Part shown: positions 26,888 through 60,331 of the stretch, piece by piece
Layout: the number at the start of each line of letters is the position of its first letter
Numbering within the stretch: the stretch's first letter is position 1
Origin: an uncultured bacterium
GTDB lineage: Bacteria; Electryoneota; AABM5-125-24; Hatepunaeales; Hatepunaeaceae
Assembly (NCBI GenBank): GCA_964627035.1
Contig: CAZVKN010000001.1
Span: 131,707-195,706 of the forward strand
Reading direction: 5' to 3'
Length of the DNA stretch: 64,000 bases
Program-made: the position numbers and the translations under genes
Notes under the pieces: generated by a model
The model's input: the letters and a program-made list of their open reading frames with translations, nothing else
Told to the model about the DNA's origin: nothing
The model's database searches: none

Positions 26888-26892
26888 GAGTT

Positions 26893-26985
26893 CACACAAA
26901 GCTCGCAAAGTAACGCAAAGAACGCAAACATTAATAGTTAACAACCTTAGCAAGCTTAGCGGTACTTAGAACACTTTGCGTGAGA
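26893..26985 (+). repeat. intercistronic periodic inverted repeat (CGCAAAG units versus CTTAG/CTTTGCG units) ending in ACTTTGCGTGAGA
   Basis: Arm 1 is 26893-26929 (cacaaagc tcgcaaag taacgcaaag aacgcaaac). Arm 2 is 26946-26984 (cttagcaag cttagcggta cttagaaca ctttgcgtgag). It fills the nuoB-nuoC spacer. Confidence 0.7.
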
Positions 26986-26992
26986 TAAAATA

Positions 26993-29732: not shown

Positions 29733-29808
29733 TCCTAACAATAAGAGAATCAAGTTTATAGCAGAATTGATTAATATAAATGTGTAAAGTAAAACTTTCA
29801 GAAAGATT

Positions 29809-29840
29809 CCTTGGCGTCTTTGCGACTTTGCGTGAGACAA
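29809..29840 (+). repeat. phased octamer array (ccttggcg tctttgcg actttgcg tgagacaa) just upstream of nuoI
   Basis: 8-nt periodic units. The last 13 nt (ACTTTGCGTGAGA, 29825-29837) are identical to 26973-26985 upstream of nuoC. Confidence 0.7.
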
Positions 29841-29847
29841 TAAAACT

Positions 29848-30534
29848 ATGAGTGCATATTTTCGTGACGTCTGGCTTGGTGTGACTACCGTGATGGCGGG
29901 GATGTTGGTGACATTCAAGCACCTGTTTGAGAAAAACATCACCATTCAATATCCGCGCGTCAAAAAAGAGATGTACCCCATCTCCCGGGCGAGTCTGATA
30001 AACCATGTTGACGAGTGCGGCTATTGCCTGGCATGCCAAATAGCCTGTCCGGTCAACATTTTCACCATTAAAGGAGCACGCAAAAATGACGAAGAAGATT
30101 TGGGCATGCTTCCTGATGGTAAAGAAAAAAAGACGCATATCGTTCACTTTGAGATTGATATGTCAAAGTGTGTCTATTGCGGACTGTGCGTTGAAGCCTG
30201 TGAAACCGAATCACTGAGGTGGGAACAACCGCAGGAAGAGTGCACCTTCACTCGTCAGGGGATGACAAGCTTCTGGTCTGATTTCGATACTCAGAAAGAG
30301 CGGGATGCAATGCTAAAACGCGAAGAAGAGCGAAAAGCTGCCGCGAAGAAGGCTCGCGCTGAAGCTGCTGCTGCAAAAAAGGCTAAGGCAAAAGCCAAAA
30401 AAGAAGCTGCTGCGAAAGCTGCTTCTGAAGAAGTAAAGGATGAAGTGAAAGCCAAGCCGAAGAGTGAAGATGTTGAACCGAAAGACCAAACTACTGAAGA
30501 AGAAGCTAAACCTTCAGAACAGAAATCGGAATAA
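29848..30534 (+). CDS. nuoI: NADH-quinone oxidoreductase subunit I with a Lys/Ala/Glu-rich C-terminal extension
   Basis: 228 aa with two 4Fe-4S motifs (CGYCLACQIACP and CVYCGLCVEACE). A low-complexity tail of about 78 aa follows (KREEERKAAAKKARAEAAAAKKAKAKAKKEAAAK...). Confidence 0.9.
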   Translation: MSAYFRDVWLGVTTVMAGMLVTFKHLFEKNITIQYPRVKKEMYPISRASLINHVDECGYCLACQIACPVNIFTIKGARKNDEEDLGMLPDGKEKKTHIVHFEIDMSKCVYCGLCVEACETESLRWEQPQEECTFTRQGMTSFWSDFDTQKERDAMLKREEERKAAAKKARAEAAAAKKAKAKAKKEAAAKAASEEVKDEVKAKPKSEDVEPKDQTTEEEAKPSEQKSE

Positions 30535-30543
30535 ACAGCAAAT

Positions 30544-31053
30544 ATGGACATATTAAATAACATAGTTTTCTGGTTCATTGTGGCATTGACCATCGGTTCA
30601 GCAATCGTGGTTGTGTTCCACAAACGGATCATTTATAGCGCATTTGCACTGCTGTTCACCTTTATAGGTGTAGCAGCACTATATCTCTATCTAACAGCAG
30701 ATTTTCTGGCTGCATCTCAATTGCTGATTTATGTTGGCGGAATTCTGACACTGATAATTTTCGGTGTGTTTATGACATCCAAAATCCAGGCACTCGACAT
30801 GTCGCAGCAGACACACCAGAGAATTGCTGCTCTGATCCCGGCAATACTCATCCTCGCCGGGTTGGGTTGGGTTATAACCAAAACCCCGTGGGCTTTGAAC
30901 ATGTCGGCAGGTGAACCGACTACGCAGGCATTGGGTAAACTGTTGCTGACCCGCTATCTCGTGCCTTTTGAAGCTGCATCCATCTTGCTGCTTGCTGCTC
31001 TGATCGGAGCCATGCAATTGACAAGATATTACCGTCACAAGGAGGATGAGTAA
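30544..31053 (+). CDS. nuoJ: NADH-quinone oxidoreductase subunit J
   Basis: 169 aa with five TM segments and YVGGILTLIIFGV. The position in the operon fits. Confidence 0.88.
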   Translation: MDILNNIVFWFIVALTIGSAIVVVFHKRIIYSAFALLFTFIGVAALYLYLTADFLAASQLLIYVGGILTLIIFGVFMTSKIQALDMSQQTHQRIAALIPAILILAGLGWVITKTPWALNMSAGEPTTQALGKLLLTRYLVPFEAASILLLAALIGAMQLTRYYRHKEDE

Positions 31054-31360
31054 TATGCACGACCTGAGTACATATCTTCTTATTTCACTTGTCCTGTTTG
31101 TGCTGGGAATGATCGCCGTTATGACGCGCAAGAACGCAGTGTCAATTTTGATGGGGGTGGAGCTGATTTTGAACTCTGCCGGACTGAACTTCGTGGCATT
31201 TAGCAAATTTTCCAGTGGGAATCTTGACGGTCAGGCTGCAGCACTGTTCGTGGTCATTATCGCCGCTGCTGAAGCGGCGGTCGCACTGGCGATCTTCCTC
31301 AACCTATACAGGCTCAAGGCAACAGCTGAAGTTGACAAAGCCGATATACTTCAGGGTTAG
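31046..31360 (+). CDS. nuoK: NADH-quinone oxidoreductase subunit K
   Basis: 104 aa with MGVELILNSAGLNFV and AAAEAAVALAI motifs. Confidence 0.92.
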   Translation: MSNMHDLSTYLLISLVLFVLGMIAVMTRKNAVSILMGVELILNSAGLNFVAFSKFSSGNLDGQAAALFVVIIAAAEAAVALAIFLNLYRLKATAEVDKADILQG

Positions 31361-31364
31361 ATAG

Positions 31365-33551
31365 ATGAGTGAATTAATACAATTACCCGAGAATATTCGG
31401 ATGTTTCAGATAGCAATTTACATTCTGCTTGCACCATTAGTAGCATTTGCCATCAATATCTTCTTCGGTAAGAAGCTTCCCCACAAAGGCAACTGGGTTA
31501 GCCTGATCGCTATCTGGTCGGGGCTGTTTGCATCCTGCTACCTGTTTTTCAGGTATGTTATCGGTATTTACGAACCCGGTTTCAACGAAACACTTTCCAT
31601 TGAGTGGCTGACTTGGGGAGATTACAAGCTTGTCATCGGCATTACACTTGACAACATGGCAATCGTCATGTTAGTGGTCGTGACGCTCGTATCAGCGGTG
31701 GTTCACCTTTTCAGTGTTGGCTACATGCATGGCGATCCCAAATATCACCGTTTCTTTGCGTTCCTATCACTTTTTAGTTTCAGTATGTTGGGATTGGTGT
31801 TAGCGGATAACATCCTGATCATATATGCATTCTGGGAGCTGGTGGGTCTATCATCATATCTGCTGATTGGATTTTGGCACGAGAAGGATTCTGCTTCGGA
31901 CGCTGCGAAGAAAGCGTTCGTTGTCAACCGTGTGGGTGATGCCGGGATGCTGATCGGAATACTGTTAGTTTTCACAACTCTCGGTACATTGAACCTTCAC
32001 GAAATAGCCGATGGTGTATCTCAAGGTTTATTAACTGGTGGTCTGCTTACAATTGCAGGATTGTGCCTGTTCTGTGGTGCTGTCGGTAAATCAGCGCAGG
32101 TTCCACTGCATGTTTGGCTACCGGATGCAATGGAAGGTCCCACGCCGGTTTCAGCGTTAATCCACGCAGCAACGATGGTTGCAGCTGGAGTCTACCTGGT
32201 AGCACGTTTGTTTGTGATCCTGACTTTTGATGCCTCAGTCGTAATTGCCTATGTTGGTGGATTTACAGCACTGTTTGCTGCAACAATTGCGGTTGCACAA
32301 TATGACATTAAGCGTGTACTTGCCTATTCCACTCTCTCACAACTTGGATATATGGTTATGGCACTTGGTGCCGGATCGTACATGGCTGGATTCTTCCATT
32401 TGACTACTCATGCCATGTTCAAGGCGTGTCTGTTCCTCGGATCCGGTTCTGTTATCCACGCTATGCACATTGCACTACATCACATCCATAGCGATGATGA
32501 TCCACAGGATATGCGTTTCATGGGGGGAATAAAGAAGCACCTTCCGTTAACTTTCATAACGTTCATGATTGCTACGGTTGCATTATCGGGAGTACCGCTG
32601 ACTTCAGGCTTCCTGTCAAAAGACGCAATTCTCGGTGGAACGTTAGCGTTTTCAATGTTACATCCTCAGCATTGGCTGCTTCCTGTGTTCGGATTTTCCG
32701 CTGCGATTCTGACAGCGTTCTATATGTTCCGCTTGGTGTACATGACGTTCTTCGGTGAGTTCCGTCCCGGTAAGGAAGCCGAGAGTCAACTGCATGAATC
32801 ACCATTGACGATGACTTTCCCACTGGTTATACTGGCAACACTCAGCACCTTCATCTTCTTCAGCCTTAATCCGGCAAATCCGGCATCCGGTTGGTTCGGA
32901 CAGCTATTCCCCGATCCACCTCGCGCATATGAGAATGCTCATGTTGACGAGCACATTATGCCTGCAGGAGCTGAAGAGGCTCTCAATCACGACATTGATA
33001 AAAATGTCCTGAAGCATCACACTGATGAGACTGATCATGCAGTCGCTGAATCACACGGATCCGGTCACGATGAGCATATTGAGCACATTCACCATGTCGC
33101 TCACACGCGAGCGATGATCCTCTCGATTATTCTGGCGACACTCGGAATCCTAATCGCTACATGGGGATACTATTGGAAGAAGACCAATCCAGATGATTGG
33201 AAGAAGCGGTTGGGTGTCATCTATCAAGGAATGTTCAACAAGTGGTGGACTGACGAGATATACGATGCGACCGTCGTTAGGGGAACAATCGGGTTTGCGA
33301 AACTTATGGCACTGTTTGATCAATATGTTATTGATGGAATTGTCCATGGGGCTGCTTGGATATGGAGGCTTTTAGCGGTCGTTCACGGCTGGTTTGACAA
33401 CAACATCGTGGATGGATTGGTTAACCTGGCTGCATGGATCATAGGGATTCTCGGACGGATTGTCCGAGTGTTCCAGGGAGGTCAGATTCAAAGATATGTA
33501 TGGTACACCCTGGTACTTGTGGGGCTATTTATTGTGATTAAGGTGTTTTAG
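31365..33551 (+). CDS. nuoL: NADH-quinone oxidoreductase subunit L with a His-rich insertion
   Basis: 728 aa with FWELVGLSSYLLIGFW, GKSAQVPLHVWLPDAMEGPTPVSALIHAATMV and a C-terminal lateral-helix region (FDQYVIDGIVHG). The His-rich loop is encoded at 32940-33110. Confidence 0.93.
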   Translation: MSELIQLPENIRMFQIAIYILLAPLVAFAINIFFGKKLPHKGNWVSLIAIWSGLFASCYLFFRYVIGIYEPGFNETLSIEWLTWGDYKLVIGITLDNMAIVMLVVVTLVSAVVHLFSVGYMHGDPKYHRFFAFLSLFSFSMLGLVLADNILIIYAFWELVGLSSYLLIGFWHEKDSASDAAKKAFVVNRVGDAGMLIGILLVFTTLGTLNLHEIADGVSQGLLTGGLLTIAGLCLFCGAVGKSAQVPLHVWLPDAMEGPTPVSALIHAATMVAAGVYLVARLFVILTFDASVVIAYVGGFTALFAATIAVAQYDIKRVLAYSTLSQLGYMVMALGAGSYMAGFFHLTTHAMFKACLFLGSGSVIHAMHIALHHIHSDDDPQDMRFMGGIKKHLPLTFITFMIATVALSGVPLTSGFLSKDAILGGTLAFSMLHPQHWLLPVFGFSAAILTAFYMFRLVYMTFFGEFRPGKEAESQLHESPLTMTFPLVILATLSTFIFFSLNPANPASGWFGQLFPDPPRAYENAHVDEHIMPAGAEEALNHDIDKNVLKHHTDETDHAVAESHGSGHDEHIEHIHHVAHTRAMILSIILATLGILIATWGYYWKKTNPDDWKKRLGVIYQGMFNKWWTDEIYDATVVRGTIGFAKLMALFDQYVIDGIVHGAAWIWRLLAVVHGWFDNNIVDGLVNLAAWIIGILGRIVRVFQGGQIQRYVWYTLVLVGLFIVIKVF

Positions 33552-33620
33552 TATTTTGATATTATTAGATTTCTAAGAAATAACAACTCTCATTAACGAG
33601 ATATAAATATACACACGCTT

Positions 33621-35141
33621 ATGGGTCCGCTGACATTTATTACATTCTTACCGGCGGTCGGTGCTGTAATCATCGCCTGCCTGCCGCGTAACAATCACAA
33701 ATTGATCCAATACACCGCACTGTTTTTTGCTGCGGTAGTAATGATCATTGCGTTTTCACTGTATCCGCAGTTTGACAAAGGTGCGGTCGGAATTAACGAT
33801 CCAAACAGTTTCCAGTTCGTGGAGAAGGCTTCATGGATTGAGATGTTCCACGTTGACTATTTCGTCGGAGTGGACGGTCTGTCATTCCCGATGATCCTGC
33901 TGACTGCGCTACTCAGTTTCCTGTGCATTCCGGCATCATTTGGGATTAAGAAGGGAGTTAAAGGATACTTTGCCCTGTTCCTCCTTCTCGAAACTGGAAT
34001 GTTGGGGACATTCGTAGCACTCGATTTTTTCCTGTTCTATGTTTTCTGGGAGGTGATGCTGCTGCCGATGTATTTCCTGATCGGAATCTGGGGAGGTCCG
34101 AGACGTGTTTACGCTGCGATAAAGTTCTTTATCTATACCTTGATTGGATCGGTGCTGATGTTGATCGTGATGCTGGTATTTTACTTTAACATATCAGATC
34201 CGATCACTGGAACACACACCTTCAATATGCTGCACATGATGAATTCCTCGAATCATAGCGGTATCATGCTGGTAAATTCGTTCAAGGTGCTGTTGTTCTT
34301 CGGGTTGTATATCGGATTTGCGATTAAAATTCCGGCATTCCCGTTCCATACCTGGCTGCCGGATGCACATGTTGAAGCACCGACTGCTGTTTCGGTCATT
34401 CTTGCGGGTGTTCTGCTAAAGATGGGAACTTACGGTCTCCTACGGATCACTTACCCGATACTACCTGAGACCACGAAAGAATTCGCCTGGTTCATTGCAC
34501 TGATCGGAGTGATAAACATCATCTACGGTGCGTTCTGTGCTATGGCACAGAAGGATCTGAAGAAGCTGGTGGCGTACAGCTCAATTTCTCACATGGGATT
34601 TGTCATGCTTGCGATGGCTTCGTTCACCCCAGCAGGAATGAACGGGGCAGTCCTGCAGATGTTCAATCACGGCACAATCACTGCAATGTTATTCCTCTTG
34701 GTAGGTGTTATCTACGACCGGGCGCATCACCGTCAGATAGACGGTTTCGGTGGAATCGCCAATGTTATGCCGCGTTATCTCGGAGTGACTGCGCTGGCAT
34801 TCTTTGCATCATTGGGACTGCCGGGACTATCCGGATTTATATCTGAAATAATGTGCTTTATCGGTGCATTCTCCGAATGGAGAACCTTCACTATTATCGC
34901 TATCGGAGGCATCATCATCACCGCTGCATATCTGTTGTGGACGCTGCAACGGATATTCTTCGGAGAAACTAACCCGAAATATGAGACGATCACGGATATA
35001 AACGGTCGTGAGCTGTTCACGCTGCTTCCGCTCGCTGCAATTGTGCTGGTACTTGGGGTGTATCCTCATCTCGTGCTGGGACTTATGAACAGTTCGATGA
35101 CATACCTCGGTCAGTTGATCCAAACTACGGTTGCGCTATGA
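33621..35141 (+). CDS. nuoM: NADH-quinone oxidoreductase subunit M
   Basis: 506 aa with FFLFYVFWEVMLLPMYFLIGIWGG, FPFHTWLPDAHVEAPTAVSVILAGVLLKMG and LKKLVAYSSISHMGF. Confidence 0.93.
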   Translation: MGPLTFITFLPAVGAVIIACLPRNNHKLIQYTALFFAAVVMIIAFSLYPQFDKGAVGINDPNSFQFVEKASWIEMFHVDYFVGVDGLSFPMILLTALLSFLCIPASFGIKKGVKGYFALFLLLETGMLGTFVALDFFLFYVFWEVMLLPMYFLIGIWGGPRRVYAAIKFFIYTLIGSVLMLIVMLVFYFNISDPITGTHTFNMLHMMNSSNHSGIMLVNSFKVLLFFGLYIGFAIKIPAFPFHTWLPDAHVEAPTAVSVILAGVLLKMGTYGLLRITYPILPETTKEFAWFIALIGVINIIYGAFCAMAQKDLKKLVAYSSISHMGFVMLAMASFTPAGMNGAVLQMFNHGTITAMLFLLVGVIYDRAHHRQIDGFGGIANVMPRYLGVTALAFFASLGLPGLSGFISEIMCFIGAFSEWRTFTIIAIGGIIITAAYLLWTLQRIFFGETNPKYETITDINGRELFTLLPLAAIVLVLGVYPHLVLGLMNSSMTYLGQLIQTTVAL

Positions 35142-36604
35142 ACCCGATCACTTTGAATGTGAATCTGGTGCCGTTGATTCCGGAATTGACGCTGATCGGC
35201 GGGTTGTTGGTGTTGCTGGTGATTGACTTGATTGTACGCTGGCAGCGTGGTGTAACGTTAGCGGTCGGCGGTTCTATTCTGCTGGTGGTGATTGCCGTCA
35301 TAACACTATCCGGTGACAATAACGTCGGCAGCTACCTGTTCGGAGCGGTTGTTCAGGACGGTGTCACCTCGTTCTTCCGTCTGTTTTTCGTGCTGGCGAC
35401 AATAATATCTATCGGGATTTTGGTGTTCAGCTTTCCCAAAAGTGGTGAACCGTTCCTGTTGATTCTGTCCGGTGTGCTTGGGATGTTCCTGCTTGCCGGA
35501 TCAAACGACTTGGTCACTCTGTTTGTCGCACTTGAGTTGGTATCCATCCCGTCTTATGTATTGGCAGGCTATCGCAAAAACGACTCAAGATCGGGTGAAG
35601 CAGCGCTGAAATATGTGCTGTTCGGTGCTCTCTCTTCGGGACTGATGCTGTATGGATTCTCACTGCTGTATGGGCTTACAGGTGCAACCAATCTTCCTGC
35701 GATGGCTCAGAAATTGGCTTCCCTTCCGAACGGCAGCAGCATGGCTCATCTGGCTGGTTTGATACTTGTGCTGGCTGGAATCGGTTACAAGATAGCGATG
35801 GTGCCGTTTCATTTCTGGTGCCCGGATGTGTACGAAGGCTCCCCTACTCCGGTGACTGCATTCTTCTCGGTCGTGCCGAAAGCAGCCGGAATTGCAGCAT
35901 TGATCCGGTTAATGCCTGTTTTCAATACACTTGAACCGATATATGGTGTCACATCAGTTGGGCTGATTACACTGGCGTCGGCAGTAACCATGACATTCGG
36001 CAACCTCGGTGCAATCTGGCAGGACAGTCTGAAAAGGTTGTTAGCATACTCTTCCATTGCCCATGCCGGATACATACTGATGGGATTTGCAGTGATGGCT
36101 GCATTCCCACACGGTGAGATCCACACGTTCGCTCTGCAAGCAATATTGTTCTATCTCGTTGTCTATCTGTTTATGAACCTCGGTGCATTTCTGATCATTG
36201 ATATGGTTGAACGGAAGCTCGGTGGTGATGGGATACACCTCTTCAAGGGACTCGGCAAAAGCAGTCCATTGGTAGCACTGGCATTTGCAGTATTATTGTT
36301 CAGCCTGATAGGACTACCACCGCTGGCTGGATTCATCGGAAAGTTCTACCTGTTTGCTGCACTGGTTAAAGGGAAGCTGTGGGGACTCGCAATGATAGGA
36401 ATTGCAAACTCAGTTGTAGCGATGTTTTACTATGTGCGCATCATCCGGGATATGTTCCTGCACGATCCTGACGAGGATGCAGCTCCGGTCACGGTTAACT
36501 TCGGCAAACTGTCGGCAGTTTTGGCTTTGGTCACGGTAGTTCCGACACTGATTCTCGGTGTGTGGTGGGGTCCACTGGCTGAGTGGATTAAGTCAATGGT
36601 GTAG
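35138..36604 (+). CDS. nuoN: NADH-quinone oxidoreductase subunit N
   Basis: 488 aa with LFVALELVSIPSY, VPFHFWCPDVYEGSPTPVTAF and LKRLLAYSSIAHAGY. It overlaps nuoM by 4 nt. Confidence 0.92.
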   Translation: MNPITLNVNLVPLIPELTLIGGLLVLLVIDLIVRWQRGVTLAVGGSILLVVIAVITLSGDNNVGSYLFGAVVQDGVTSFFRLFFVLATIISIGILVFSFPKSGEPFLLILSGVLGMFLLAGSNDLVTLFVALELVSIPSYVLAGYRKNDSRSGEAALKYVLFGALSSGLMLYGFSLLYGLTGATNLPAMAQKLASLPNGSSMAHLAGLILVLAGIGYKIAMVPFHFWCPDVYEGSPTPVTAFFSVVPKAAGIAALIRLMPVFNTLEPIYGVTSVGLITLASAVTMTFGNLGAIWQDSLKRLLAYSSIAHAGYILMGFAVMAAFPHGEIHTFALQAILFYLVVYLFMNLGAFLIIDMVERKLGGDGIHLFKGLGKSSPLVALAFAVLLFSLIGLPPLAGFIGKFYLFAALVKGKLWGLAMIGIANSVVAMFYYVRIIRDMFLHDPDEDAAPVTVNFGKLSAVLALVTVVPTLILGVWWGPLAEWIKSMV

Positions 36605-43067: not shown

Positions 43068-43730
43068 TTACGGAAAAAAAGGTAATCCGGCTATGCGGCA
43101 GGCACCTCGTCTGTATCCTTCGGGAAACAGCTCCCTGAATTCTGTCAGTTCCAGATTGCTCGCCTTGCATGTTTCATATACAGTAGGAATATTGTCTGTA
43201 ACTCTGTAGTAGTCCCGAAGGAATACAATGACTCTGCGGTGTCGGTTGGTCAACCCTTGTGTCAGCTTCCATTCGCGGACTATCAGTTGGGCGAACCGCT
43301 CATTCCATTGATCGAAATCCTTGAGAAATCCGCGAGGTGAGACATTGTGTTCCGTTGTCGGCAGCGTGGTTGTTTCGTAGGTCAGCCAGTAATTTGAAGA
43401 ATACATAAACTGATAGTTGATACCGGCAATACGGCATGCACCTCGATGGTAGCCTGTTGGGAAAAGGTAGCGGAGATCACTCAATCTGAGGTTGTTGTCA
43501 GAGCAGGCTAAAACAATAACTGGAACTACTTTCTCATTCAGGAATTTATCACGGATGTAGTTGATAAACGTCCAATGATCCTCGGTCAACCCTTCATAAA
43601 TTCCCTGCAGTTCAGCCATTCCGTCTGCGAAATTCTTATCCCACTGGTTAGGCGGATTGAGGAATCCCTGTCTGTCGAGAGTGTAAGTGTGGTCATTGAA
43701 ACTGACCGTCTTTTGCTTGTTATTTGTCAA
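43068..43730 (-). CDS. tandem double DsrC/TusE-family domain protein (CysB-only, no C-terminal CysA arm)
   Basis: 220 aa. Domain 1 reads ...LTEDHWTFINYIRDKF...LFPTGYHRGACRIAGI. Domain 2 reads ...RHRRVIVFLRDYY...LFPEGYRRGACRIAGLPFFP-stop. The start is TTG with no obvious SD. Confidence 0.75.
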   Translation of the reverse strand: MTNNKQKTVSFNDHTYTLDRQGFLNPPNQWDKNFADGMAELQGIYEGLTEDHWTFINYIRDKFLNEKVVPVIVLACSDNNLRLSDLRYLFPTGYHRGACRIAGINYQFMYSSNYWLTYETTTLPTTEHNVSPRGFLKDFDQWNERFAQLIVREWKLTQGLTNRHRRVIVFLRDYYRVTDNIPTVYETCKASNLELTEFRELFPEGYRRGACRIAGLPFFP

Positions 43731-43794
43731 TGTTCAATAAATTTTGAGATGGGGAGCATGGACATTTCTTAGTTATCTGATCTATTCACTATAA

Positions 43795-43865
43795 TGTCAT
43801 TCCGGCAAAAGCCTGAATCCAGTAACCAATTGATATTACGGGATTCTGGATCAAGTCCAGAATGA
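43795..43865. mobile_element. 71-bp palindromic repeat (family D, GTCATTC...GAATGAC ends)
   Basis: gtcattccggcaaaagcctgaatccagtaaccaattgatattacgggattctggatcaagtccagaatgac. It is collinear with 50199-50213 plus 50348-50401. Confidence 0.75.
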
Positions 43866-43971
43866 CAAATAGGATGGTTAACTGAATAAATCAAAGAACT
43901 CATTTCTGTCCATCCGGCTGACAAGAATGTCACTACTCCCCGTTTACGATATCTTCAACTGAGAATCTTGC

Positions 43972-45315
43972 CTAATCACCCGCTTCCCAGTCAATACGGT
44001 TGGCTGCTTTGCCATCAATTAGAATTGACCGGGACAGCATGTCATGCACACCGCCGACAGCAAAGTCAGCTTTGTGTGTTTCGATCAACTGCATGAATTG
44101 CCGCTTGCAGTTGGAGCACGCAGTGGCAACGTATTTGGCTTCCGTAACTTTGACCTGCTCCATCTTCTTCTTGCCGGAAACGTGCATTCTAAAGTCGCGG
44201 ATGTCATCCATAGCAGACAGCCCTCCACCACCACCGCAGCACCAGTTCTCACCACGGTTCGGAGTCATATCCTTGAAGTCAGAACAGGATGCTTCGAGAA
44301 TAACACGCGGATCTTCGATAATGTTGCAGCTTCTGCCAAAGTTACAGGGATCGTGGTAAGTCACTCTCATAGGGTTTTTGCTCTTGTCGAACTGCAGCTT
44401 GCCTTCACGGATTCTGTCTGCAGTCCACTCCATGCAATTTACAACTTCAAACGGTAGGTCACCCCACCATTTTCCCTTCTCCATCATCATCTTCATAATT
44501 CGATAAGCGTGACCACACTCACCCATGAACATATATTTGACACCCAGCCTGATCGCCTCATCCACATACGGCTTGTTGTCAGCCTTCATGTCGGCATCAT
44601 TACCGGTGAACAGACCGTAATTAGCGCCGTCAAATAGTTTTGAGCTCATAGTCCATTTGTCCTGCATACCGAGTACATAGAACACTTTTGCAATTCCGGT
44701 TGTCGCTTCAGGATTGACCAGAACATCTCCAGATGGTGGGACGTAAAAATATTCTGCACCCACAACATCAACCGGAATTCTGATGTCTATGCCGTGCTCA
44801 TCCTTCATCTCCTCTTCGAGAAATTCGATTGCTGACATAAATGCTTCGGGAGATGCCCCATCAGTGTTTCCTGTTTCAAGAGAGGCTTGCACAACCCTTT
44901 TCATTGTATCAGGAGTCATGTCAAGCATTTCAGCAATTGCTCTCCCCTTACGCGTGATGACCGAATTGTCAATTCCGAACGGGCAGAACGTCGCACAGCG
45001 GCGGCATCCCGTGCATTCATAGAAGGCTGTCACCCATTTCTCCATATCACCGTCAAAGTCCTCTGCACCTATAAGTGATCCGAGTAGCTTACCGGATGTG
45101 GTCGTATGTTTCTTGTAGATGGATCTGATCATATCCGAGCGGACCACCGGATTACGCATTTCATCGGGACCGCCATAATAGACCGGGCACTGTTCAGCAC
45201 ATACTCCGCACCGGGCGCAGACATCCATATAGAGTCTCAGAACCTGAGGTCCGTCCTCAATTGATGTTATGGAATCAACTACTTTCTGTTTTATTTCTTC
45301 TGTTGTAATAGCCAT
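43972..45315 (-). CDS. dsrK: DsrK/HdrD-like iron-sulfur protein (heterodisulfide-reductase-type CCG domain protein)
   Basis: 447 aa with CARCGVCAEQCP and CTGCRRCATFCP ferredoxin-like motifs. CCG-domain cysteines are present (GECGHAY, HDPCNFGR, NWCCGGGGG, ACSNCKRQ). Confidence 0.8.
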   Translation of the reverse strand: MAITTEEIKQKVVDSITSIEDGPQVLRLYMDVCARCGVCAEQCPVYYGGPDEMRNPVVRSDMIRSIYKKHTTTSGKLLGSLIGAEDFDGDMEKWVTAFYECTGCRRCATFCPFGIDNSVITRKGRAIAEMLDMTPDTMKRVVQASLETGNTDGASPEAFMSAIEFLEEEMKDEHGIDIRIPVDVVGAEYFYVPPSGDVLVNPEATTGIAKVFYVLGMQDKWTMSSKLFDGANYGLFTGNDADMKADNKPYVDEAIRLGVKYMFMGECGHAYRIMKMMMEKGKWWGDLPFEVVNCMEWTADRIREGKLQFDKSKNPMRVTYHDPCNFGRSCNIIEDPRVILEASCSDFKDMTPNRGENWCCGGGGGLSAMDDIRDFRMHVSGKKKMEQVKVTEAKYVATACSNCKRQFMQLIETHKADFAVGGVHDMLSRSILIDGKAANRIDWEAGD

Positions 45316-45330
45316 GACTGTTTTCCTCGA

Positions 45331-46029
45331 TTAAGTTTTTTGAATTAAGCTTTGAGTGAAGAATATCCCGCCGAAGTGCAGGATTTTACTGAACGGGATG
45401 TACATCACCAGCAGTTGCACGAGGAAAAAATGCAACTTAAAGATGCTGCTCGCCGGAACGACCAAAGAGGTGAAAGAGAAGGTGAACAGATTAGCGAAAT
45501 ACTCCCTTGAGACTGCCAAATCAAAATGCTCACCACCAAAACGCATAGAGTTGCCTGTTGCAATAATGGCAATCAGCAGAATCAGTGCGAAGAGGTCAGC
45601 AAAGTTGGTAATCTCCCGCACGCGCTTGAGCGTTAAACGACGTAAAGTCAGTAGAAGAACGGTGGCAAATATCACGATACCTGCAGCACCGCCGAAATTG
45701 GAACTCATCGCCTTGACGTTGACACCCCATCCAACCAGAACAGTATCAATCAGCGAAGTGAACACTCTCAGGTGCCCCATTATGATCAGCACAAGAGCTG
45801 CATGAAACAGCCATGAGAAGATCCACAGCGGTTTATTGCCTTTGAACAGACTTGGGAAAAACAGAGCTTCCTTGATCAGATTACCAACCAATCCGCCTTG
45901 GGGCCAGGGTGACAGTGTCATTTTGCCCGGCTGTGGGGTTCTTGTCCAATGTTTGAACCTGTAGATTATCCCTACTACAAATGTGATGACCGCTATGTAG
46001 GGTAGAATTATGAACGCAAATGTATCCAA
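45331..46029 (-). CDS. dsrM: DsrM/NarI-like membrane di-haem b-type cytochrome subunit
   Basis: 232 aa with five TM segments and conserved His in TM2 and TM5 (FHAALVLIIMGHLR and KILHFGG), as in the nitrate reductase gamma family. It lies 15 nt upstream of the DsrK-like gene. Confidence 0.75.
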   Translation of the reverse strand: MDTFAFIILPYIAVITFVVGIIYRFKHWTRTPQPGKMTLSPWPQGGLVGNLIKEALFFPSLFKGNKPLWIFSWLFHAALVLIIMGHLRVFTSLIDTVLVGWGVNVKAMSSNFGGAAGIVIFATVLLLTLRRLTLKRVREITNFADLFALILLIAIIATGNSMRFGGEHFDLAVSREYFANLFTFSFTSLVVPASSIFKLHFFLVQLLVMYIPFSKILHFGGIFFTQSLIQKT

Positions 46030-46120
46030 GGATAGATTCCTCAGTTTGAAAGTTAAAGGTTATTGATTAGCACTATCTATCTGAATTAGATGGAGTTATC
46101 TCCGCACAAATGCCAATCAG

Positions 46121-46160
46121 GTGATTTAGTGATTACGTGATTGAGTAATTTTGTGATTAT
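46121..46160. repeat. phased octamer array GTGATTNN x5
   Basis: gtgattta gtgattac gtgattga gtaatttt gtgattat, in the spacer between the DsrC-like gene and the DsrM-like gene. Confidence 0.75.
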
Positions 46161-46195
46161 TTAACTACGTGAATCGTAAATTCGTTATATTCAGA

Positions 46196-46504
46196 TCAGA
46201 GACAACCCGCTGGACGTGGAAGTCCGGCGATGCGGTACGCTCCTTTGGCAATCCCGCAAGGGAACATCTCACAGATGAACCTGCTGCTGAATCCGGTGCT
46301 TTTGCCGATTTTGATGATCGGGGGACCTTCGCCGTACTCATGATAATAGTCACGAACGAAGTCAATGACTTTCCAATGATCGTCGGATAGCGGACCGAGG
46401 TCGTTTTTTTTCGCAAGATCTGCAGCGATATCACGTGTCCATGATGTCATTTCAATTAGAAAACCGTCCGGATTCTCCAGTTGATTTGTTTGAGTGGTTA
46501 CCAT
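46196..46504 (-). CDS. DsrC/TusE-family sulfur-relay-type protein (CysA-only)
   Basis: 102 aa reading ...LSDDHWKVIDFVRDYYHEYGEGPP...MFPCGIAKGAYRIAGLPRPAGCL. The penultimate Cys is present and the CysB position is Tyr. There is a strong SD (gaggagg). Confidence 0.85.
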   Translation of the reverse strand: MVTTQTNQLENPDGFLIEMTSWTRDIAADLAKKNDLGPLSDDHWKVIDFVRDYYHEYGEGPPIIKIGKSTGFSSRFICEMFPCGIAKGAYRIAGLPRPAGCL

Positions 46505-46766: not shown

Positions 46767-47588
46767 TTAAAGCTCGATTTTCAAATCATTTTCTGTTGAT
46801 ATAAGCTCAAGATTATTAATCAAGTAATTAAATTTATCCATAGTGAATGCACCCTCAATGCATGCAAACACCGCTTTGTCACATTCTGACGGAATCTCAA
46901 AGCGGTCACCCACCAGCACAATTCTTACAAATGGTAATCTTGGATCCTCTGCAATATTCATCGCAAATTCACGTGCCCGTTTGTTGCCCATAGAGCAGTC
47001 AATCGTGACATAGTCCGGACGGAATTTCTCAACGATCATCGAGAATGTATATTCGCAGTCAACGAAGCTGACATCGAATCTGGGATCAATACCTTTGGAC
47101 ACGACCTCATTCTGAAGCGATTTCTTGTCAGTAACCACCATAACATTCGGCGGCTGAGTCTTGACGGTGTGGTAGTATTCGCACTCTTCGCATGTCTGGT
47201 TGCAGAAAGATCTCGCATGACCTGAGTTTTCAGGAAGTTTAATCATCTCATAGCAGCGGTATGCTTTGGCTTGATAGACGATACACTGCCGACATTTCGG
47301 ATCAATCCCGTCAACATTGGCGTTAAACTCCCAGCAATATTGGACCGTGCTATACCTGTTTCCGTTGCCATGTCCATTGCCGTTACCGCTCCCGTTAGCC
47401 CTTTTAATAAGAGTGTTATGCACATCTGTTTTTTGTAGAATCTCACTACGGTTTATGCGATAGTGACCGCCTGGGGTTCGCATGGCACGGATTCTACCGG
47501 CTTTTATCCATTTGAGAACGGCATCAGGGGTCACGGAAAGCATCTCTGCAGCTTGTCCGGTGGTCAGGTATTGTTTTTTATCGCTCAA
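46767..47588 (-). CDS. transcriptional regulator with excisionase/MerR-type HTH, Gly-Asn linker, seven-Cys module and receiver-like C-terminal domain
   Basis: 273 aa. The N-terminus YLTTGQAAEMLSVTPDAVLKWIKAGRIRAMRTPGGHYRI is HTH_17-like. This is followed by GSGNGNGHGNGN, then C-x14-C-x2-C-x9-C-x19-C-x3-C-x2-C. The C-terminus has an alternating beta/alpha pattern. The start is TTG. Confidence 0.75.
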   Translation of the reverse strand: MSDKKQYLTTGQAAEMLSVTPDAVLKWIKAGRIRAMRTPGGHYRINRSEILQKTDVHNTLIKRANGSGNGNGHGNGNRYSTVQYCWEFNANVDGIDPKCRQCIVYQAKAYRCYEMIKLPENSGHARSFCNQTCEECEYYHTVKTQPPNVMVVTDKKSLQNEVVSKGIDPRFDVSFVDCEYTFSMIVEKFRPDYVTIDCSMGNKRAREFAMNIAEDPRLPFVRIVLVGDRFEIPSECDKAVFACIEGAFTMDKFNYLINNLELISTENDLKIEL

Positions 47589-47629: not shown

Positions 47630-47658
47630 ATTATAGTATGTTTTTTATTGATTGTCAA
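47630..47658 (-). promoter_or_regulatory. consensus sigma70 promoter of the HTH/Cys-rich regulator
   Basis: The minus strand reads TTGACA-17 nt-TATAAT exactly (plus-strand tgtcaa 47653-47658 and attata 47630-47635). It lies about 40 nt upstream of the start at 47588. Confidence 0.7.
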
Positions 47659-47672: not shown

Positions 47673-47850
47673 TTTGTAATTGAGTGATTGAGTAATTGAG
47701 TGATTATGTGATTGATGGTGACTTCCGACAAAAAATGAGGGCGTCCCGATCAGTCGGGACGCCCTCAGAAAAATTATTGGGTGATTTTGTGATTGGGTGA
47801 TTTCTCACTTGTCAACTTGTCAACTTTCTAACTTGTCAACTTGCTAACTT
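47673..47850. repeat. phased TTG-octamer arrays on both sides of the terminator hairpin
   Basis: 47673-47721 reads ttgagtga ttgagtaa ttgagtga ttatgtga ttgatggt. 47777-47850 reads ttgggtga ttttgtga ttgggtga tttctcac ttgtcaac ttgtcaac tttctaac ttgtcaac ttgctaac, nine octamers in one phase. The last units overlap the final codons of the kinase gene. Confidence 0.8.
47729..47767 (-). terminator. Rho-independent terminator of the hybrid histidine kinase gene
   Basis: Perfect 13-bp stem gagggcgtcccga/tcgggacgccctc (47737-47749 and 47754-47766) with a 4-nt loop. On the minus strand it is followed by a T-run (plus-strand A6 at 47730-47735). Confidence 0.85.
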
Positions 47851-48984
47851 CCTGAGCTTGATAAAAAACGATGCACCTCTCCCCTCTTCGCTCTCTGCCC
47901 AGATCTGACCTTGCTGTGCTTCAACCGCTATTTTGCAAAATGCAAGACCGAGACCGACGCTGTATTTACCGGCAATCTCACGATTCCTGACTCTGAAGTA
48001 CTTGTCAAATATCTTTGTCAGATAGTCCTGTGGTATGCCTTTGCCATTGTCTGCCACCTCGATGGTTGCCCACTCATCGTCTGAAACGAAAGAAAGTTCG
48101 ATATCACTGTCTGTTCGAGTGTGCTTGATCGCATTTGACAACAGATTCTGAATCACGCGGGAAATCAGCTCGCTGTCTGCCTGTACACTCAGCTTCTCAG
48201 GAATATCATTCAGCAGGATTTTGCCACCTGATTGTTCTATCTGATAATCATACTTGGCACATATCTCTGTCAGAACCGGAACCAGATTAACTTCGGACAG
48301 AGTTACAGGCATCTCACCACTCTCCAGCCTCGATACATCGAGCATTCCTCGTGTCAGGGAGAACGTCTCTTCAACTGAATTTTCTATAGTTACAGCAAAA
48401 TCTTTTAACACGTCCTTGTCAATATCGTCACTATGCGACAAATCGAGTATCATCTCGGACATACCGCGTATGACGGAAAGTGGATTATTCAGGTCATGTA
48501 CTACCATGTGGACAAGGTTGTCACGAGCTTCCTCAGCTTCCTGCAGGGCATCGTAGTTTTCTGCGATTTTATCATACAGTTCAATCTGAAGATCGCGTGC
48601 CCTCTTTTTCTCAAGACAGCCGTTAATGCGTGCTTTCAGCAAAATGGAATTGAACGGTTTGGTGAGGTAATCATCTGCTCCTCTCTCGAGGCAGTGCACT
48701 ATGCTGTTTATGTTGTCATCTGCGGTAATCATAATCACCGGCAGATCTCTCAATACTTTATCCTGCTTCATCTCAATGAGCACTTCATGTCCGTCCATCA
48801 CGGGCATCATTATATCGAGGAGCACAACATCAATATCTCTTTCTCGCATGACCTTCAAGGCAATTTCACCATTTTCAGCGAAACACGAATTAAATCCCTG
48901 CATCAGGATGAAATCGTGTAGAAGAGCTCGGTTTGCTTCAGTGTCATCAACGATAAGAATCAGTGGAATTTTTAAATTGTCCAA
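47836..48984 (-). CDS. hybrid response-regulator/histidine kinase (REC-HisKA-HATPase_c)
   Basis: 382 aa with an N-terminal receiver (ILIVDD...VVLLDIMMPVMDG...KPF). It has an H-box (HDLNNPL), N-box (LLSNAIKHT), G1 (DNGKGIP) and G2 (GLGLAFC). The start is TTG. Confidence 0.88.
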   Translation of the reverse strand: MDNLKIPLILIVDDTEANRALLHDFILMQGFNSCFAENGEIALKVMRERDIDVVLLDIMMPVMDGHEVLIEMKQDKVLRDLPVIMITADDNINSIVHCLERGADDYLTKPFNSILLKARINGCLEKKRARDLQIELYDKIAENYDALQEAEEARDNLVHMVVHDLNNPLSVIRGMSEMILDLSHSDDIDKDVLKDFAVTIENSVEETFSLTRGMLDVSRLESGEMPVTLSEVNLVPVLTEICAKYDYQIEQSGGKILLNDIPEKLSVQADSELISRVIQNLLSNAIKHTRTDSDIELSFVSDDEWATIEVADNGKGIPQDYLTKIFDKYFRVRNREIAGKYSVGLGLAFCKIAVEAQQGQIWAESEEGRGASFFIKLRKLAS

Positions 48985-58998: not shown

Positions 58999-59853
58999 TT
59001 AAATTGTCAAAATACTTTTACTTATGTTGTTCAGAACCTCTTTTCTATACCATGCCGATGCTCGAATATCGGAAATCGGTGAAACATACTCCATTACTTT
59101 AGCAGCAAAGCGATCTGCGTCCAAATTGTTCATCTTCTTGCCTATAAGGTAGTCACATGCAGAAGTCGTGAATTTGATTGTCGGTGCTACTGATCCGACC
59201 GCGATTCCTGCTTCGTTAACAGTACCGTCAACATCCATCAGAATGTGGTATGCCAGTGACACTACCGCACATTCCATAGATCGTCTGGTTCCTACTTTAA
59301 TGAATCCGGAATGTCGTTTCAACTTGCTTACAGGCAACATCACACTCCGCAGTATTTCATCCTTCTTTAATGCGGTTTTCCGAACACCTGTGAAGAACTC
59401 ATCAATCGGCAATTCTCTGACACTACCGAAAGCCGATACAATTTCACATCTTGCTTTCAGGGCGACCAATGCACACGCCATATCTCCCGCAGGCGAAGCG
59501 GTGCAGATATTACCTCCGATTGTCGCAACCTGCCGAATCTGTCGTGAAGCAAGATTGTAAGCTGCTTGGTGCAATACCGGATAAAGCGATTCAATCTCTC
59601 GGTTCGCTAAAATTTGTCTGGCAGTAACCAGACTGCCGATCCTAATCCCATCATCGCACCGTTGGATCGTGGTGAACTTTTCATCTGTTAATCGATTCAG
59701 GCTTATTACGGTGAGTTCCTTTTCAGCCTGTTTCTTCAACTCCAGCAACAAGTCTGTACAACCGGCTCCAAAACGGAAGTTTTCATTCTGATGATCGGAT
59801 ATCTGAGCTAACAACTCTTCTGTCGTTTTCGGTGTAACTACATTAAAGTTCAT
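58999..59853 (-). CDS. xanthine dehydrogenase family FAD-binding subunit (CoxM/XdhB-like)
   Basis: 284 aa with GAGCTDLL, VATIGGNICTASPAGD and a C-terminal CO-dehydrogenase-flavoprotein-like region (SDIRASAWYR). Confidence 0.88.
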   Translation of the reverse strand: MNFNVVTPKTTEELLAQISDHQNENFRFGAGCTDLLLELKKQAEKELTVISLNRLTDEKFTTIQRCDDGIRIGSLVTARQILANREIESLYPVLHQAAYNLASRQIRQVATIGGNICTASPAGDMACALVALKARCEIVSAFGSVRELPIDEFFTGVRKTALKKDEILRSVMLPVSKLKRHSGFIKVGTRRSMECAVVSLAYHILMDVDGTVNEAGIAVGSVAPTIKFTTSACDYLIGKKMNNLDADRFAAKVMEYVSPISDIRASAWYRKEVLNNISKSILTI

Positions 59854-59867
59854 AATAACTTCGTTGA

Positions 59868-60329: not shown

Positions 60330-60331
60330 TT

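Follow-up and report, generated by a model that had tools for sequence, protein, structure and literature searches.

What does a DsrMK-type gene pair do in a 64-kb window (the whole stretch of DNA analysed) from which dsrAB is absent, and why is it accompanied by two DsrC-family proteins of which one has only CysA and the other only CysB? The earlier note had proposed a stand-alone module separate from classical dissimilatory sulfite reduction. The four minus-strand genes on which this proposal was based, their order, the 71-bp palindrome between two of them and the cysteine pattern were confirmed in every detail, and all four family assignments are backed by profile matches. With the regulator gene, which comes first, the cassette consists of genes for an HTH regulator, a small DsrC-family protein (DsrC*), a cytochrome b (DsrM*), an iron-sulfur protein (DsrK*) and a tandem DsrC-like protein.

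DsrC* (102 aa; 46196..46504, minus strand) matches Pfam DsrC with 92 bits and is assigned in NCBIfam, like the tandem protein, to TIGR03342 (DsrC/TusE family). Its cysteine columns were read against solved DsrC structures: since GAYRIAGLPRPAGCL of DsrC* aligns with GACKMAGLPKPTGCV of D. vulgaris DsrC, the CysB column is occupied by Tyr90, and Cys101, carried by a complete C-terminal arm, corresponds to CysA. The CysB column holds Tyr or Phe in 55/55 orthologs, among which C101 is invariant together with C78 and C83, two extra cysteines in the motif IC.LFPCG. This CCYC pattern characterizes a small separate clade among 150 family representatives. TusE, which functions in the tRNA 2-thiouridine sulfur relay, is also a CysA-only protein and belongs to the same Pfam and TIGRFAM family. 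DsrC* differs from it, however, in having retained the DsrC-type arm motif AGLPRPxGC, in having no tusBCD nearby and in its FPCG cysteines, which are missing from TusE-like representatives (Y[KGQR]AC patterns); it is nearer to DsrC than to TusE (76 versus 50 bits in PDB) and reaches a TusE equivalog score of only 59 (cutoff 191). Judged from its sequence, DsrC* looks like a candidate carrier docking into DsrK, and C78/C83 could act in cis.

The tandem protein (220 aa; 43068..43730, minus strand) matches Pfam DsrC in two stretches (132 bits). In both domains GACRIAG aligns with GACKMAG, from which it follows that CysB is kept in each (C99 and C211), and each has one further near-invariant cysteine (C76 and C188). 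The CysA arm is missing from both, domain 1 passing into the linker and domain 2 ending with GLPFFP. An AlphaFold2 (AF2) model (pLDDT 84, pTM 0.52) shows a disordered linker at 117-125, and a fold search with this model returned DsrC/TusE structures as the sole matches, with a target TM of up to 0.86. There are 670 homologs, and at least 163 species genomes carry the gene. The cysteine pattern is constant in the 25/25 that were aligned; in most sister tandem families CysB is missing from domain 2. Each domain resembles the 'RspA' type of DsrC-like protein without CysA in its DsrC fold, its retained CysB and the missing CysA arm. The tandem protein differs from RspA in being a fusion of two domains, each with CysB plus the further conserved cysteine, and in its genetic link to a DsrK-type enzyme (DsrM*/DsrK* or an HmcE-like/DsrK-REC pair) rather than to regulators alone. 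The pairing of a CysA-only with a CysB-only protein beside one DsrMK-type pair is real and conserved, and a sequencing error is ruled out as the source of the pattern because all orthologs have it.

DsrM* (232 aa; 45331..46029, minus strand) is a NarI-like membrane di-haem cytochrome b that matches Pfam Nitrate_red_gam with 84 bits. Its best NCBIfam match is DsrM, with a score of 103.8 that is below the cutoff of 300. Its identity to canonical DsrM amounts to 26-28%, and it has the size of NarI, canonical DsrM being longer (329 aa). Four histidines, kept in the homologs, align with positions in E. coli NarI which we take to be the haem ligands of NarI; DsrM* is presumed to be the quinol-interacting subunit. 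DsrK* (447 aa; 43972..45315, minus strand) is an HdrD/DsrK-family iron-sulfur protein matching Pfam Fer4_8 and CCG, whose best NCBIfam match, DsrK, is likewise under the equivalog cutoff. All cofactor cysteines are present: two CxxCxxCxxxC(P) motifs and one CCG motif (C324, C359, C360, C400 and C403). The single CCG motif and the invariant GEC267GH269 agree with descriptions of DsrK-type enzymes. The last CCG ligand, however, is a cysteine in DsrK* where canonical DsrK has an aspartate (Asp500), and the identity to canonical DsrK is only 32-33%. With both subunits below the equivalog cutoffs and the typical aspartate missing, DsrK* may act on another substrate than DsrK does.

The regulator HTH273 (273 aa; 46767..47588, minus strand) has an N-terminal HTH_17/excisionase-type domain (Pfam HTH_17 with 47.9 bits, also MerR; NCBIfam TIGR01764), a cysteine-rich segment (C85, C99, C102, C112, C129, C133 and C136) and a receiver-like C-terminus, the receiver-like matches having been obtained for a paralog. 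The seven cysteines and the HTH are kept across 71 homologs. Upstream of the gene lies a putative sigma-70 promoter (47630..47658, minus strand), TTGACA-17-TATAAT, a promoter-like site matching the consensus in 12/12 positions. It is preceded by a strong terminator-like hairpin (47767-47736) that closes the gene of a hybrid receiver-histidine kinase (382 aa; 47836..48984, minus strand; Pfam Response_reg, HisKA and HATPase_c). The kinase may signal to the regulator. Its tie to the cassette is weak, since only some related loci have counterparts, and these are of low identity. The imperfect palindrome of exactly 71 bp (43796..43866) in the spacer between the DsrK* and tandem genes is unique in the window (0/100 shuffles match) and has a folding energy of -35.1 kcal/mol (z = -4.7). 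With no T-run behind it, it does not qualify as a canonical intrinsic terminator. Its occurrence is confined to assemblies of the organism from which the window comes, all other loci being without it; it is a lineage-specific insertion and does not belong to the conserved cassette. The palindrome also gives rise to a spurious 54-aa ORF (43769-43933).

As the earlier note had suggested should be checked, the arrangement recurs in relatives: at least 163 species-level genomes of at least 10 phyla, many of these phyla uncultured, carry the cassette. At 41 loci seeded with the tandem gene and having at least 4 kb on either side, DsrK* is present in 38/41, DsrM* in 37/41, DsrC* in 35/41 and the HTH gene in 34/41. 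Seeding with DsrC* gave 20 informative loci, 19 with DsrM* and DsrK*, 18 with the HTH gene and 12 with the tandem gene within 6 kb; in the other 8 the tandem gene is missing at that distance, and Desulfobacterota loci are without DsrC*. The regulator opens the cassette, and a second copy often lies directly upstream of the tandem gene. Unbiased ORF clustering of the neighbours yielded only the five cassette families as widely common; genes for Rrf2, MerR, receiver and PAS-kinase proteins recur nearby.

Does the cassette then stand alone? Within the window it does: Pfam annotation of all called genes in the 64 kb revealed no other sulfur genes, which for AprAB and DsrEFH is the search made, and canonical probes for Sat, DsrT, DsrJ/O/P, DsrA/B/D/L/N, QmoA/B/C and TauE gave no tblastn match in the window, in agreement with the absences listed in the earlier note. 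In relatives it does not. A canonical dsr or qmo gene flanks 21/160 of the loci. In Gemmatimonadota dsrAB, a DsrD-like ORF, dsrL and dsrN lie directly beside the cassette, canonical dsrC and dsrMK being absent within 10 kb. On a 39-kb Planctomycetota contig (L173) no more than 7 kb separate it from a complete canonical cluster of Sat, two-Cys DsrC, DsrT, DsrMKJOP, DsrAB, a DsrD-like ORF, DsrL and DsrN; the window's DsrK* is 72% identical to the cassette DsrK of this contig and 33% to its canonical DsrK. Full Dsr pathways have been reported for the cassette-carrying MAGs Latescibacterota WVZY01, LCP-89 B3_LCP, Electryoneota bin11 and Tariuqbacter, the last with two divergent dsrK copies. The earlier interpretation thus holds for the families, the cysteines and the conserved pairing, whereas the stand-alone status finds no support in relatives.

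The best explanation, to which we give about an even chance, is that the locus encodes an accessory set of DsrMK paralogs and partners, a cassette under regulation of its own which operates alongside, and does not replace, a dissimilatory sulfur pathway, is linked to quinol and has DsrC* and the tandem protein as clients. The closest known systems are the extra dsrMK paralogs of sulfate reducers (such as AF0544 and AF0547 of A. fulgidus; the 'alternative DsrMK type' noted by DiSCo), which have the same NarI-like cytochrome b and DsrK homolog without DsrJOP and also coexist with canonical DsrMKJOP. DsrK paralogs of the A. fulgidus type, too, keep GECGH and have Cys rather than Asp as last CCG ligand. 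The cassette differs from them in its two dedicated DsrC-family proteins and its cysteine-rich HTH regulator; for the known dsrMK paralogs the literature search brought up no mention of such partners. With the canonical DsrC-DsrMKJOP system (menaquinol:DsrC-trisulfide oxidoreductase) it shares the DsrC fold and arm motif, the single non-cubane cluster with GECGH and a di-haem DsrM, whereas its arm-bearing protein lacks CysB and DsrJOP is absent.

In such an accessory cassette DsrM*, which resembles the 'DsrM-1' type of DsrMK-only complexes, would trade electrons with the menaquinone pool; for DsrMK-only complexes quinol oxidation at DsrM is considered probable, and we infer the same direction here. 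DsrK* would conduct the electrons via two [4Fe-4S] clusters to a single non-cubane cluster, predicted to be ligated by cysteines only and to lie beside the conserved GECGH cysteine. DsrC* would be the arm-bearing client and deliver, on its CysA, sulfane sulfur or a mixed disulfide to the pocket of DsrK*. This is made plausible by the finding that DsrK takes up the CysA adduct and can turn over without CysB, and by Desulfurella amilsii, where a single-Cys DsrC is used with DsrMK. Being arm-less and hence unable to reach the pocket, the tandem protein would be either a thiol partner, the CysB of either domain capturing the reactive CysA adduct, or a second client serviced via a CysA arm. The regulator may tie expression to redox or sulfur status.

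Rather unlikely, in our view, is a refinement of the earlier note's idea, a split-DsrC relay able to run without DsrAB. In it CysA of DsrC* and CysB of the tandem protein would become joined by an intermolecular disulfide or trisulfide, and this 'protein heterodisulfide' would be the substrate to which DsrK* is dedicated. The complementary pattern kept in all orthologs, the restriction of broadly conserved neighbours to the five cassette genes and the lack of dsrAB in the window speak for it, as does the Hdr-type all-Cys ligation of DsrK*: it agrees with a softer substrate such as a disulfide or persulfide, the aspartate having been proposed to suit perthiosulfenate. There is also a partial precedent: the dsr operon of D. 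amilsii encodes a single-Cys DsrC, DsrMK only, DsrL and two DsrE-like proteins, from which the second cysteine has been proposed to come. The cassette resembles it in the CysA-only DsrC, DsrMK without JOP, the contiguous order dsrC-dsrM-dsrK, the DsrL-type context in relatives and the neighbouring small cysteine proteins as proposed CysB replacement, whose genes adjoin dsrK in D. amilsii (order read from locus tags) as the tandem gene does here; these proteins, however, have the DsrE fold there and the DsrC fold in the cassette. What weakens the split is that the invariant C78/C83 of DsrC* could pair in cis, that the gene linkage is not obligatory, the tandem gene or DsrC* being missing from some loci, that domain 2 is without CysB in most sister families, that complete canonical Dsr sets co-occur with the cassette and that DsrK can turn over without CysB. 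Recent cryo-EM and mutant data show that the role of CysB is limited to stabilising the trisulfide, that it is the perthiosulfenate on CysA which enters DsrK and that CysB-to-Ala mutants still grow. Of the earlier claim of a divided two-cysteine chemistry the complementary pattern therefore remains, and trans-pairing is one of several possibilities.

Comparably doubtful is a sensory or regulatory device in which DsrM*/DsrK* would report the status of the quinone pool or of sulfane sulfur via the DsrC-like thiols and so tune dsr expression. The cassette opens with a cysteine-rich HTH regulator, the regulatory neighbourhood (two HTH paralogs, Rrf2, MerR, PAS kinases and, in 17 loci, the tandem gene next to one for a fusion of a DsrK-like protein and a receiver domain) suits such a role equally well, CysA-less DsrC-like proteins are conventionally regarded as RspA ('regulatory sulfur-related protein') regulators, and the adjoining dsr operons could be the targets. 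A membrane di-haem cytochrome and a full catalytic subunit of DsrK type, its active site intact, would, however, be heavy equipment for sensing alone, DsrC* has the complete arm of a sulfur carrier, and the fold search with the tandem model gave no significant match to a DNA-binding protein beyond DsrC. That the cassette is the organism's only DsrC/DsrMK set, serving a DsrAB encoded elsewhere, is improbable: although Desulfurella amilsii has such a sole set (there within the dsrAB operon), and although the Gemmatimonadota loci and one incomplete Gemmatimonadales MAG, for which DsrA-B-D-L-N but no other DsrC or DsrMK are listed, point that way, the L173 contig and the Latescibacterota and LCP-89 MAGs have canonical DsrC and/or DsrMKJOP besides the cassette, and the low identity of DsrK* to canonical DsrK and the two dsrK copies reported for Tariuqbacter also speak against it.

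The cassette is thus to be seen together with the sulfite-reduction genes which it adjoins in relatives: rather than indicating a stand-alone new pathway, it offers, in DsrC* and the tandem protein, candidate partners for "orphan" DsrMK paralogs.

The minus-strand locus at 43068–46504 of the window does carry the four open reading frames that an earlier note had placed there, and a Pfam HMM search matched the DsrC, Nitrate_red_gam and CCG families to the proteins to which that note had assigned them. The proteins are a DsrC-family protein of 102 aa (small DsrC), a NarI-like cytochrome b of 232 aa (cassette DsrM), an HdrD/DsrK-like iron-sulfur protein of 447 aa (cassette DsrK) and a protein of 220 aa with two DsrC-like domains (tandem DsrC). 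Together with a Cys-rich HTH regulator of 273 aa (HTH273) they are referred to here as the cassette. CysA is the penultimate Cys on DsrC's C-terminal arm, and CysB is the second redox Cys upstream of it.

The arrangement recurs in related genomes. Among the 41 loci that were found via the tandem gene and have at least 4 kb on either side, orthologs of the cassette DsrK are encoded in 38, of DsrM in 37 and of the small DsrC in 35, and an upstream HTH gene is present in 34. When the small DsrC was used as seed in metagenomes, 19 of the 20 informative loci had DsrM and DsrK, 18 had the HTH gene and 12 had the tandem gene. From this two-way synteny it therefore follows that HTH, small DsrC, DsrM and DsrK form a tight core and that the tandem DsrC is a frequent companion. 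Unbiased clustering of all open reading frames of 80 loci returned the five cassette families as the only widely shared ones; the loci of Desulfobacterota have DsrM, DsrK and tandem DsrC without an intact small DsrC. The names of the MAGs had no matches in the supplement of Diao 2023. In a scan with one genome per species the tandem gene was present in at least 163 genomes, many of them from Gemmatimonadota, Planctomycetota and Myxococcota and others from Latescibacterota, Zixibacteria, Elusimicrobiota, Calditrichota, LCP-89, Desulfobacterota, Acidobacteriota and Ignavibacteria. These data tie one DsrMK paralog family genetically to a DsrC with CysA only, to a Cys-rich HTH regulator and often to a tandem DsrC with CysB in both domains, in 10 or more phyla, which are mostly uncultured.

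The cassette DsrM matches Nitrate_red_gam (PF02665) with 84.2 bits, and its H76, H86, H200 and H218, which are 85–100% conserved, align with the His of E. coli NarI that we take to be the haem ligands; it thus combines the family match with the four axial His of a NarI-like di-haem cytochrome b. Its best NCBIfam match is DsrM (NF038037, profile positions 110–273 of 320), with 103.8 bits below the cutoff of 300. The protein is NarI-sized, and the alignment with NarI across the region of the TMH3 loop has a gap of one residue. In a cryo-EM preprint from 2026 a DsrM type, DsrM-1, is described that has no TMH3 loop insertion, no occluding Arg pair and a NarI-like quinol site and that is proposed to oxidise quinol directly in DsrMK-only complexes. 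Judged from its size, the cassette DsrM may resemble this type.

The cassette DsrK contains the Pfam domains Fer4_8 and CCG, with two ferredoxin-type motifs and one complete CCG motif (C324, C359-C360, C400, C403). NCBIfam DsrK (NF045796) is its best match, yet with 343.6 bits below the cutoff of 400, as is likewise the ortholog encoded beside dsrAB in the Gemmatimonadota locus L046 (364.6 bits). The CCG cysteines and GEC267GH269 are invariant in 43 orthologs, so that the protein has both the single CCG motif and the GECGH with the non-ligating Cys and His described for DsrK. The two complete CCG motifs of methanogen-type HdrD, which give two non-cubane clusters, are not found: Pfam recognizes one CCG stretch, and of the second motif there is only C267. 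Where one contig encodes both, the cassette DsrK and the canonical DsrK are only 32% identical. In canonical DsrK the last CCG Cys is replaced by Asp (Asp500 in A. fulgidus), whereas the cassette DsrK has C400-S-N-C403 aligned with C-A-I-D of the canonical DsrK of L173, a contig from a Planctomycetota genome. In this respect it is like the DsrK paralogs of the extra dsrMK sets of A. fulgidus, the function of which is unknown and which have Cys as last cluster ligand at that site. Often flanking the tandem gene, a second sub-module is present at L046:10644-13697 and in 16 other loci (e.g., L021:6987-9973, L051, L059, L074 and L082), encoding a Macro-domain protein, an HmcE/TmcC-like cytochrome b and a 607-aa DsrK-like CCG protein to which a response-regulator receiver domain is fused at the C-terminus. 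A receiver domain on an HdrD/DsrK-type catalytic protein is unusual and suggests phosphorylation-controlled or signalling thiol redox chemistry.

The small DsrC is a member of the DsrC/TusE/RspA superfamily by Pfam DsrC (PF04358; 92.4 bits versus a cutoff of 24.9) and by TIGR03342 (85.5 versus 53.5 bits). Alignment to solved DsrC structures bore out the cysteine columns that had been assigned by eye: GAYRIAGLPRPAGCL aligns with GACKMAGLPKPTGCV of a solved DsrC structure and therefore Tyr90 is in the CysB column and Cys101 is CysA. The CysB-x10-CysA of canonical DsrC at the C-terminus of one polypeptide is found neither in this protein nor in the tandem DsrC. In 55 of 55 orthologs the CysB column is occupied by Tyr or Phe and CysA is retained, and because the pattern is conserved in all of them a sequencing or frameshift artefact behind the missing Cys can be ruled out. 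The arm, AGLPRPAGC, is two substitutions away from the DiSCo motif AGLPKPTG(not N)C, which tolerates one, with arm length and penultimate Cys kept. C78 and C83, in the motif IC.LFPCG, are invariant across the 55 orthologs; where the small DsrC has FPCG, canonical DsrC has FPSG in the structure alignment. In a comparison of the 150 nearest 50%-identity representatives of the DsrC family, with a single sequence as query, this CCYC pattern forms a small clade apart from canonical YSCC DsrC and from TusE-like Y[KGQR]AC proteins. That the small DsrC is a TusE was also ruled out: it scores 59 bits versus the NF008562 cutoff of 191, its arm is DsrC-like and there is no tusBCD, the window annotation containing no genes of the DsrE/TusBCD family. 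Two representatives, P0121 (383 aa) and P0123 (247 aa), carry a CCYC-type domain at the C-terminus of far longer proteins, which may be fusions with an upstream protein such as a regulator, or gene-calling run-throughs.

The tandem DsrC belongs to the same superfamily with two domains (PF04358, 131.6 bits; TIGR03342, 105.8 bits). As the earlier note had claimed, both domains keep CysB and lack the CysA arm: they align GACRIAG to GACKMAG and terminate ahead of the arm. Both thus have the DsrC fold without CysA by which RspA is defined (as cited in PMC9371685). An AF2 model has two confident DsrC-fold domains, which match DsrC structures with a target TM of up to 0.86, and a disordered linker at a pTM of 0.52; therefore no fixed packing of the domains is predicted. 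For an inter-domain metal or Fe-S site built from the four Cys the predicted model gives no support. At E < 1e-5 there are 670 homologs, and the best 120 of these are ~203–259 aa long (mostly 213–238 aa), 58–74% identical and from several phyla. In 25 aligned members C99 and C211, at the CysB positions, are invariant and C76 and C188 close to invariant, and all 25 end at GLPFFx or a similarly short tail without a CysA arm. Among the 150 representatives arm-less two-domain proteins are diverse, and since most sister clusters have CysB in domain 1 alone, CysB in both domains is specific to the tandem subfamily. The DsrC family is generally rich in multi-domain architectures (P0122 with 541 aa, P0130, P0131, P0148, P0164 and others); one protein has five DsrC-like stretches, and in some tandem proteins the C-terminal domain is a canonical two-Cys domain. 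A literature search on tandem or fused DsrC returned nothing relevant, and the tandem DsrC-like protein, the CCYC subfamily and the five-gene cassette are undescribed in the searchable literature, an earlier mention being possible.

Other sulfur-metabolism genes are, as had been noted before, not found in the window by Pfam annotation and tblastn. Probes for canonical dsr, qmo and sat had no tblastn match anywhere in it, by which a concealed dsrAB is ruled out, and the DsrJ, DsrO and DsrP that accompany DsrMK in DsrMKJOP had no match in the window, nor is an NrfD or related gene in its annotation. By Pfam the window encodes C25 peptidases with T9SS tails, PEPCK, a PEP-utilising enzyme, an 11-gene nuo operon, an aldehyde dehydrogenase, an MFS transporter and a xanthine-dehydrogenase-type enzyme. 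The RecN of the host falls deep within the FCB group, with 43–45% identity to the nearest named relatives, Calditrichota and Electryoneota. Two adjoining paralogous giants of 1838 and 1832 aa (9557–20682, minus strand) have Peptidase_C25 (gingipain-type), CarboxypepD_reg and T9SS Por_Secre_tail sorting signals, and there are several further T9SS-tailed proteins in the window, pointing to a proteolytic FCB-group lifestyle. The nuo operon (25929–36604, plus strand) comprises NuoA, B, C, D, H, I, J, K, L, M and N with no NuoE, F or G in the annotated stretch; this is the type with 11 subunits, whose electron-input module is unidentified. The molybdoenzyme cluster (58999–63288, minus strand) consists of a Fer2_2 subunit, a MoCoBD large subunit and a FAD_binding_5 subunit and is adjoined by a Nuc_deoxyri_tr3 protein and a protein with a Beta_methylindole_red_C domain.

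The stand-alone pathway proposed in the earlier note is not supported in relatives, which place the cassette beside dsrAB or near a complete canonical dsr cluster. For example, in L046 dsrA (451 bits, cutoff 393) and dsrB (503 bits, cutoff 342) and genes for a DsrL-like flavoprotein and a DsrN-like amidase adjoin the DsrK-DsrM-DsrC-HTH operon, and four more loci have this arrangement of dsrAB plus cassette. The 86-aa open reading frame after the L046 dsrB, unrecognised by Pfam, is putatively DsrD-like, judged from its position, from its similarity to the open reading frame at the same position in L173 and from the equivalent cluster of a different Gemmatimonadales MAG, which lists DsrD. The top 120 matches of a DsrB search were at least 79% identical and came from Gemmatimonadota, Planctomycetota and Latescibacteria. 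Two of these DsrB matches were followed, with decisive results. One led to L173, a contig of 39 kb which encodes QmoB/QmoC-like proteins, Sat, canonical DsrC (GACKVAGLPKPTGCV), DsrT, DsrMKJOP, DsrAB, a DsrD-like protein, DsrL and DsrN and, on the opposite strand less than 7 kb from this canonical cluster, the small DsrC, DsrM, DsrK and tandem DsrC of the cassette. The other led to a Latescibacterota contig with DsrT-MKJOP-DsrAB-Sat-Qmo, from the same MAG as the cassette locus L018. According to published tables, the LCP-89 MAG of the cassette locus L013 has Sat, AprAB, Qmo, DsrL and DsrOP. Vigneron et al. also described dsr operons, both for Tariuqbacter arcticus, where there are “two divergent copies of dsrK”, and for “bin11”, which is taken to be the MAG “bin.11” of L009, a locus among the closest relatives of the cassette of the window. 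In total, 21 of 160 cassette loci have one or more canonical dsr or qmo genes in the fetched flanks. Beside the cassette in dsr-bearing loci sirohaem-biosynthesis genes recur (L036:6973-8496; L173:16780-17247), including a uroporphyrinogen-III methylase/HemD fusion and a CysG N-terminal-type NAD_binding_7 protein. The cassette proteins are 55–84% identical across phyla, which together with the DsrB identities suggests horizontal transfer of a dsr package, perhaps with the cassette in it, between uncultured lineages of sediments. The best-supported reading, to which we would give about an even chance, takes the cassette to be an accessory DsrMK paralog, linked to quinone and working inside a Dsr-type sulfur metabolism on DsrC-family clients of its own.

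How such clients could be used may be judged from cryo-EM and mutants of canonical proteins: DsrK binds and opens the DsrC-trisulfide, after which the extended arm hands it the CysA perthiosulfenate; CysB is required solely for forming the stable trisulfide, and in the retracted state the trisulfide is 22 Å away from the cluster. From these data we infer that a small DsrC with an arm and CysA alone can serve a DsrK-type enzyme as a competent client, that the arm-less tandem DsrC would be unable to reach the active site unaided and that the reactive CysA adduct would probably need a capturing thiol, which could be C83 or C78 of the small DsrC in cis or CysB of the tandem DsrC in trans. There is a precedent for a single-Cys DsrC with DsrMK in D. 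amilsii, where two adjoining DsrE-like Cys proteins were proposed to compensate. The all-Cys ligation of the cassette DsrK may, by a published argument, favour disulfide or persulfide over perthiosulfenate chemistry. HTH273 has conserved cysteines (C85, C99, C102, C112, C129, C133 and C136) and a receiver-like domain, its gene is preceded by a putative promoter with a perfect sigma-70-like consensus match, and the regulator probably ties expression to the redox or sulfur state.

If CysA of the small DsrC and CysB of the tandem DsrC were joined in an intermolecular disulfide or trisulfide, which the Hdr-like all-Cys DsrK paralog reduces or forms in a quinone-coupled reaction, the cassette would be a “protein heterodisulfide reductase”, an idea that we regard as speculative and rather improbable. 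Should it be true, it would at one stroke give a function to the orphan DsrMK paralogs and to the RspA-type proteins, and hosts without DsrAB would have an independent respiratory or detoxifying sulfur module. A split-DsrC heterodisulfide system of this kind that operates independently of DsrAB fits the complementary Cys of the two proteins and sits poorly with the relatives that keep the cassette beside dsrAB; we consider it unlikely.

The cassette could also be mainly a sensory or regulatory device. In favor of a sensory role it can be said that regulator genes neighbour the RspA-type tandem gene; the same cassette has an enzyme pair with conserved axial His and invariant CCG cysteines, and we doubt that sensing is its main task. 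In ~10 loci (L024:9482-9958 and ~9 others) a gene for an Rrf2-family regulator (Fe-S type) lies between the DsrK and tandem genes, where the window has a palindrome. The palindrome is, as reported before, 71 bp long (43796–43866), single-copy in the window and a stable hairpin. It was found only in assemblies of the window's own organism, and relatives have there a short spacer or the Rrf2 gene, by which a conserved regulatory element of the cassette is ruled out. A 54-aa open reading frame over it (43769–43933, minus strand; translation ...HSGLDPESRNINWLLDSGFCRND...) is almost certainly not a gene but a spurious translation of the palindrome. That the cassette is the sole DsrC/DsrMK of the organism, of the Desulfurella type, is quite improbable; among relatives, L173 encodes canonical DsrC and DsrMKJOP on one contig with the cassette.

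Taken singly, the elements of the cassette have precedents in extra DsrMK paralogs, single-Cys DsrC, RspA-type proteins and DsrMK-only complexes. Among these, the extra DsrMK paralogs and the arm-less RspA proteins are long-known entries in the catalogues of sulfur-metabolising microbes, with no function assigned. The partners in the cassette are concrete, testable substrate candidates for the DsrMK paralog, and two groups of proteins long listed as “function unknown” become one specific testable pairing. The scoring of genomes for sulfur metabolism is also affected, because tools that tally any DsrC or DsrMK match may be counting this accessory system. Finally, recent structural work suggests that CysB is a mere stabiliser of the sulfur adduct, and with the split Cys arrangement nature provides an experiment on what this residue does.
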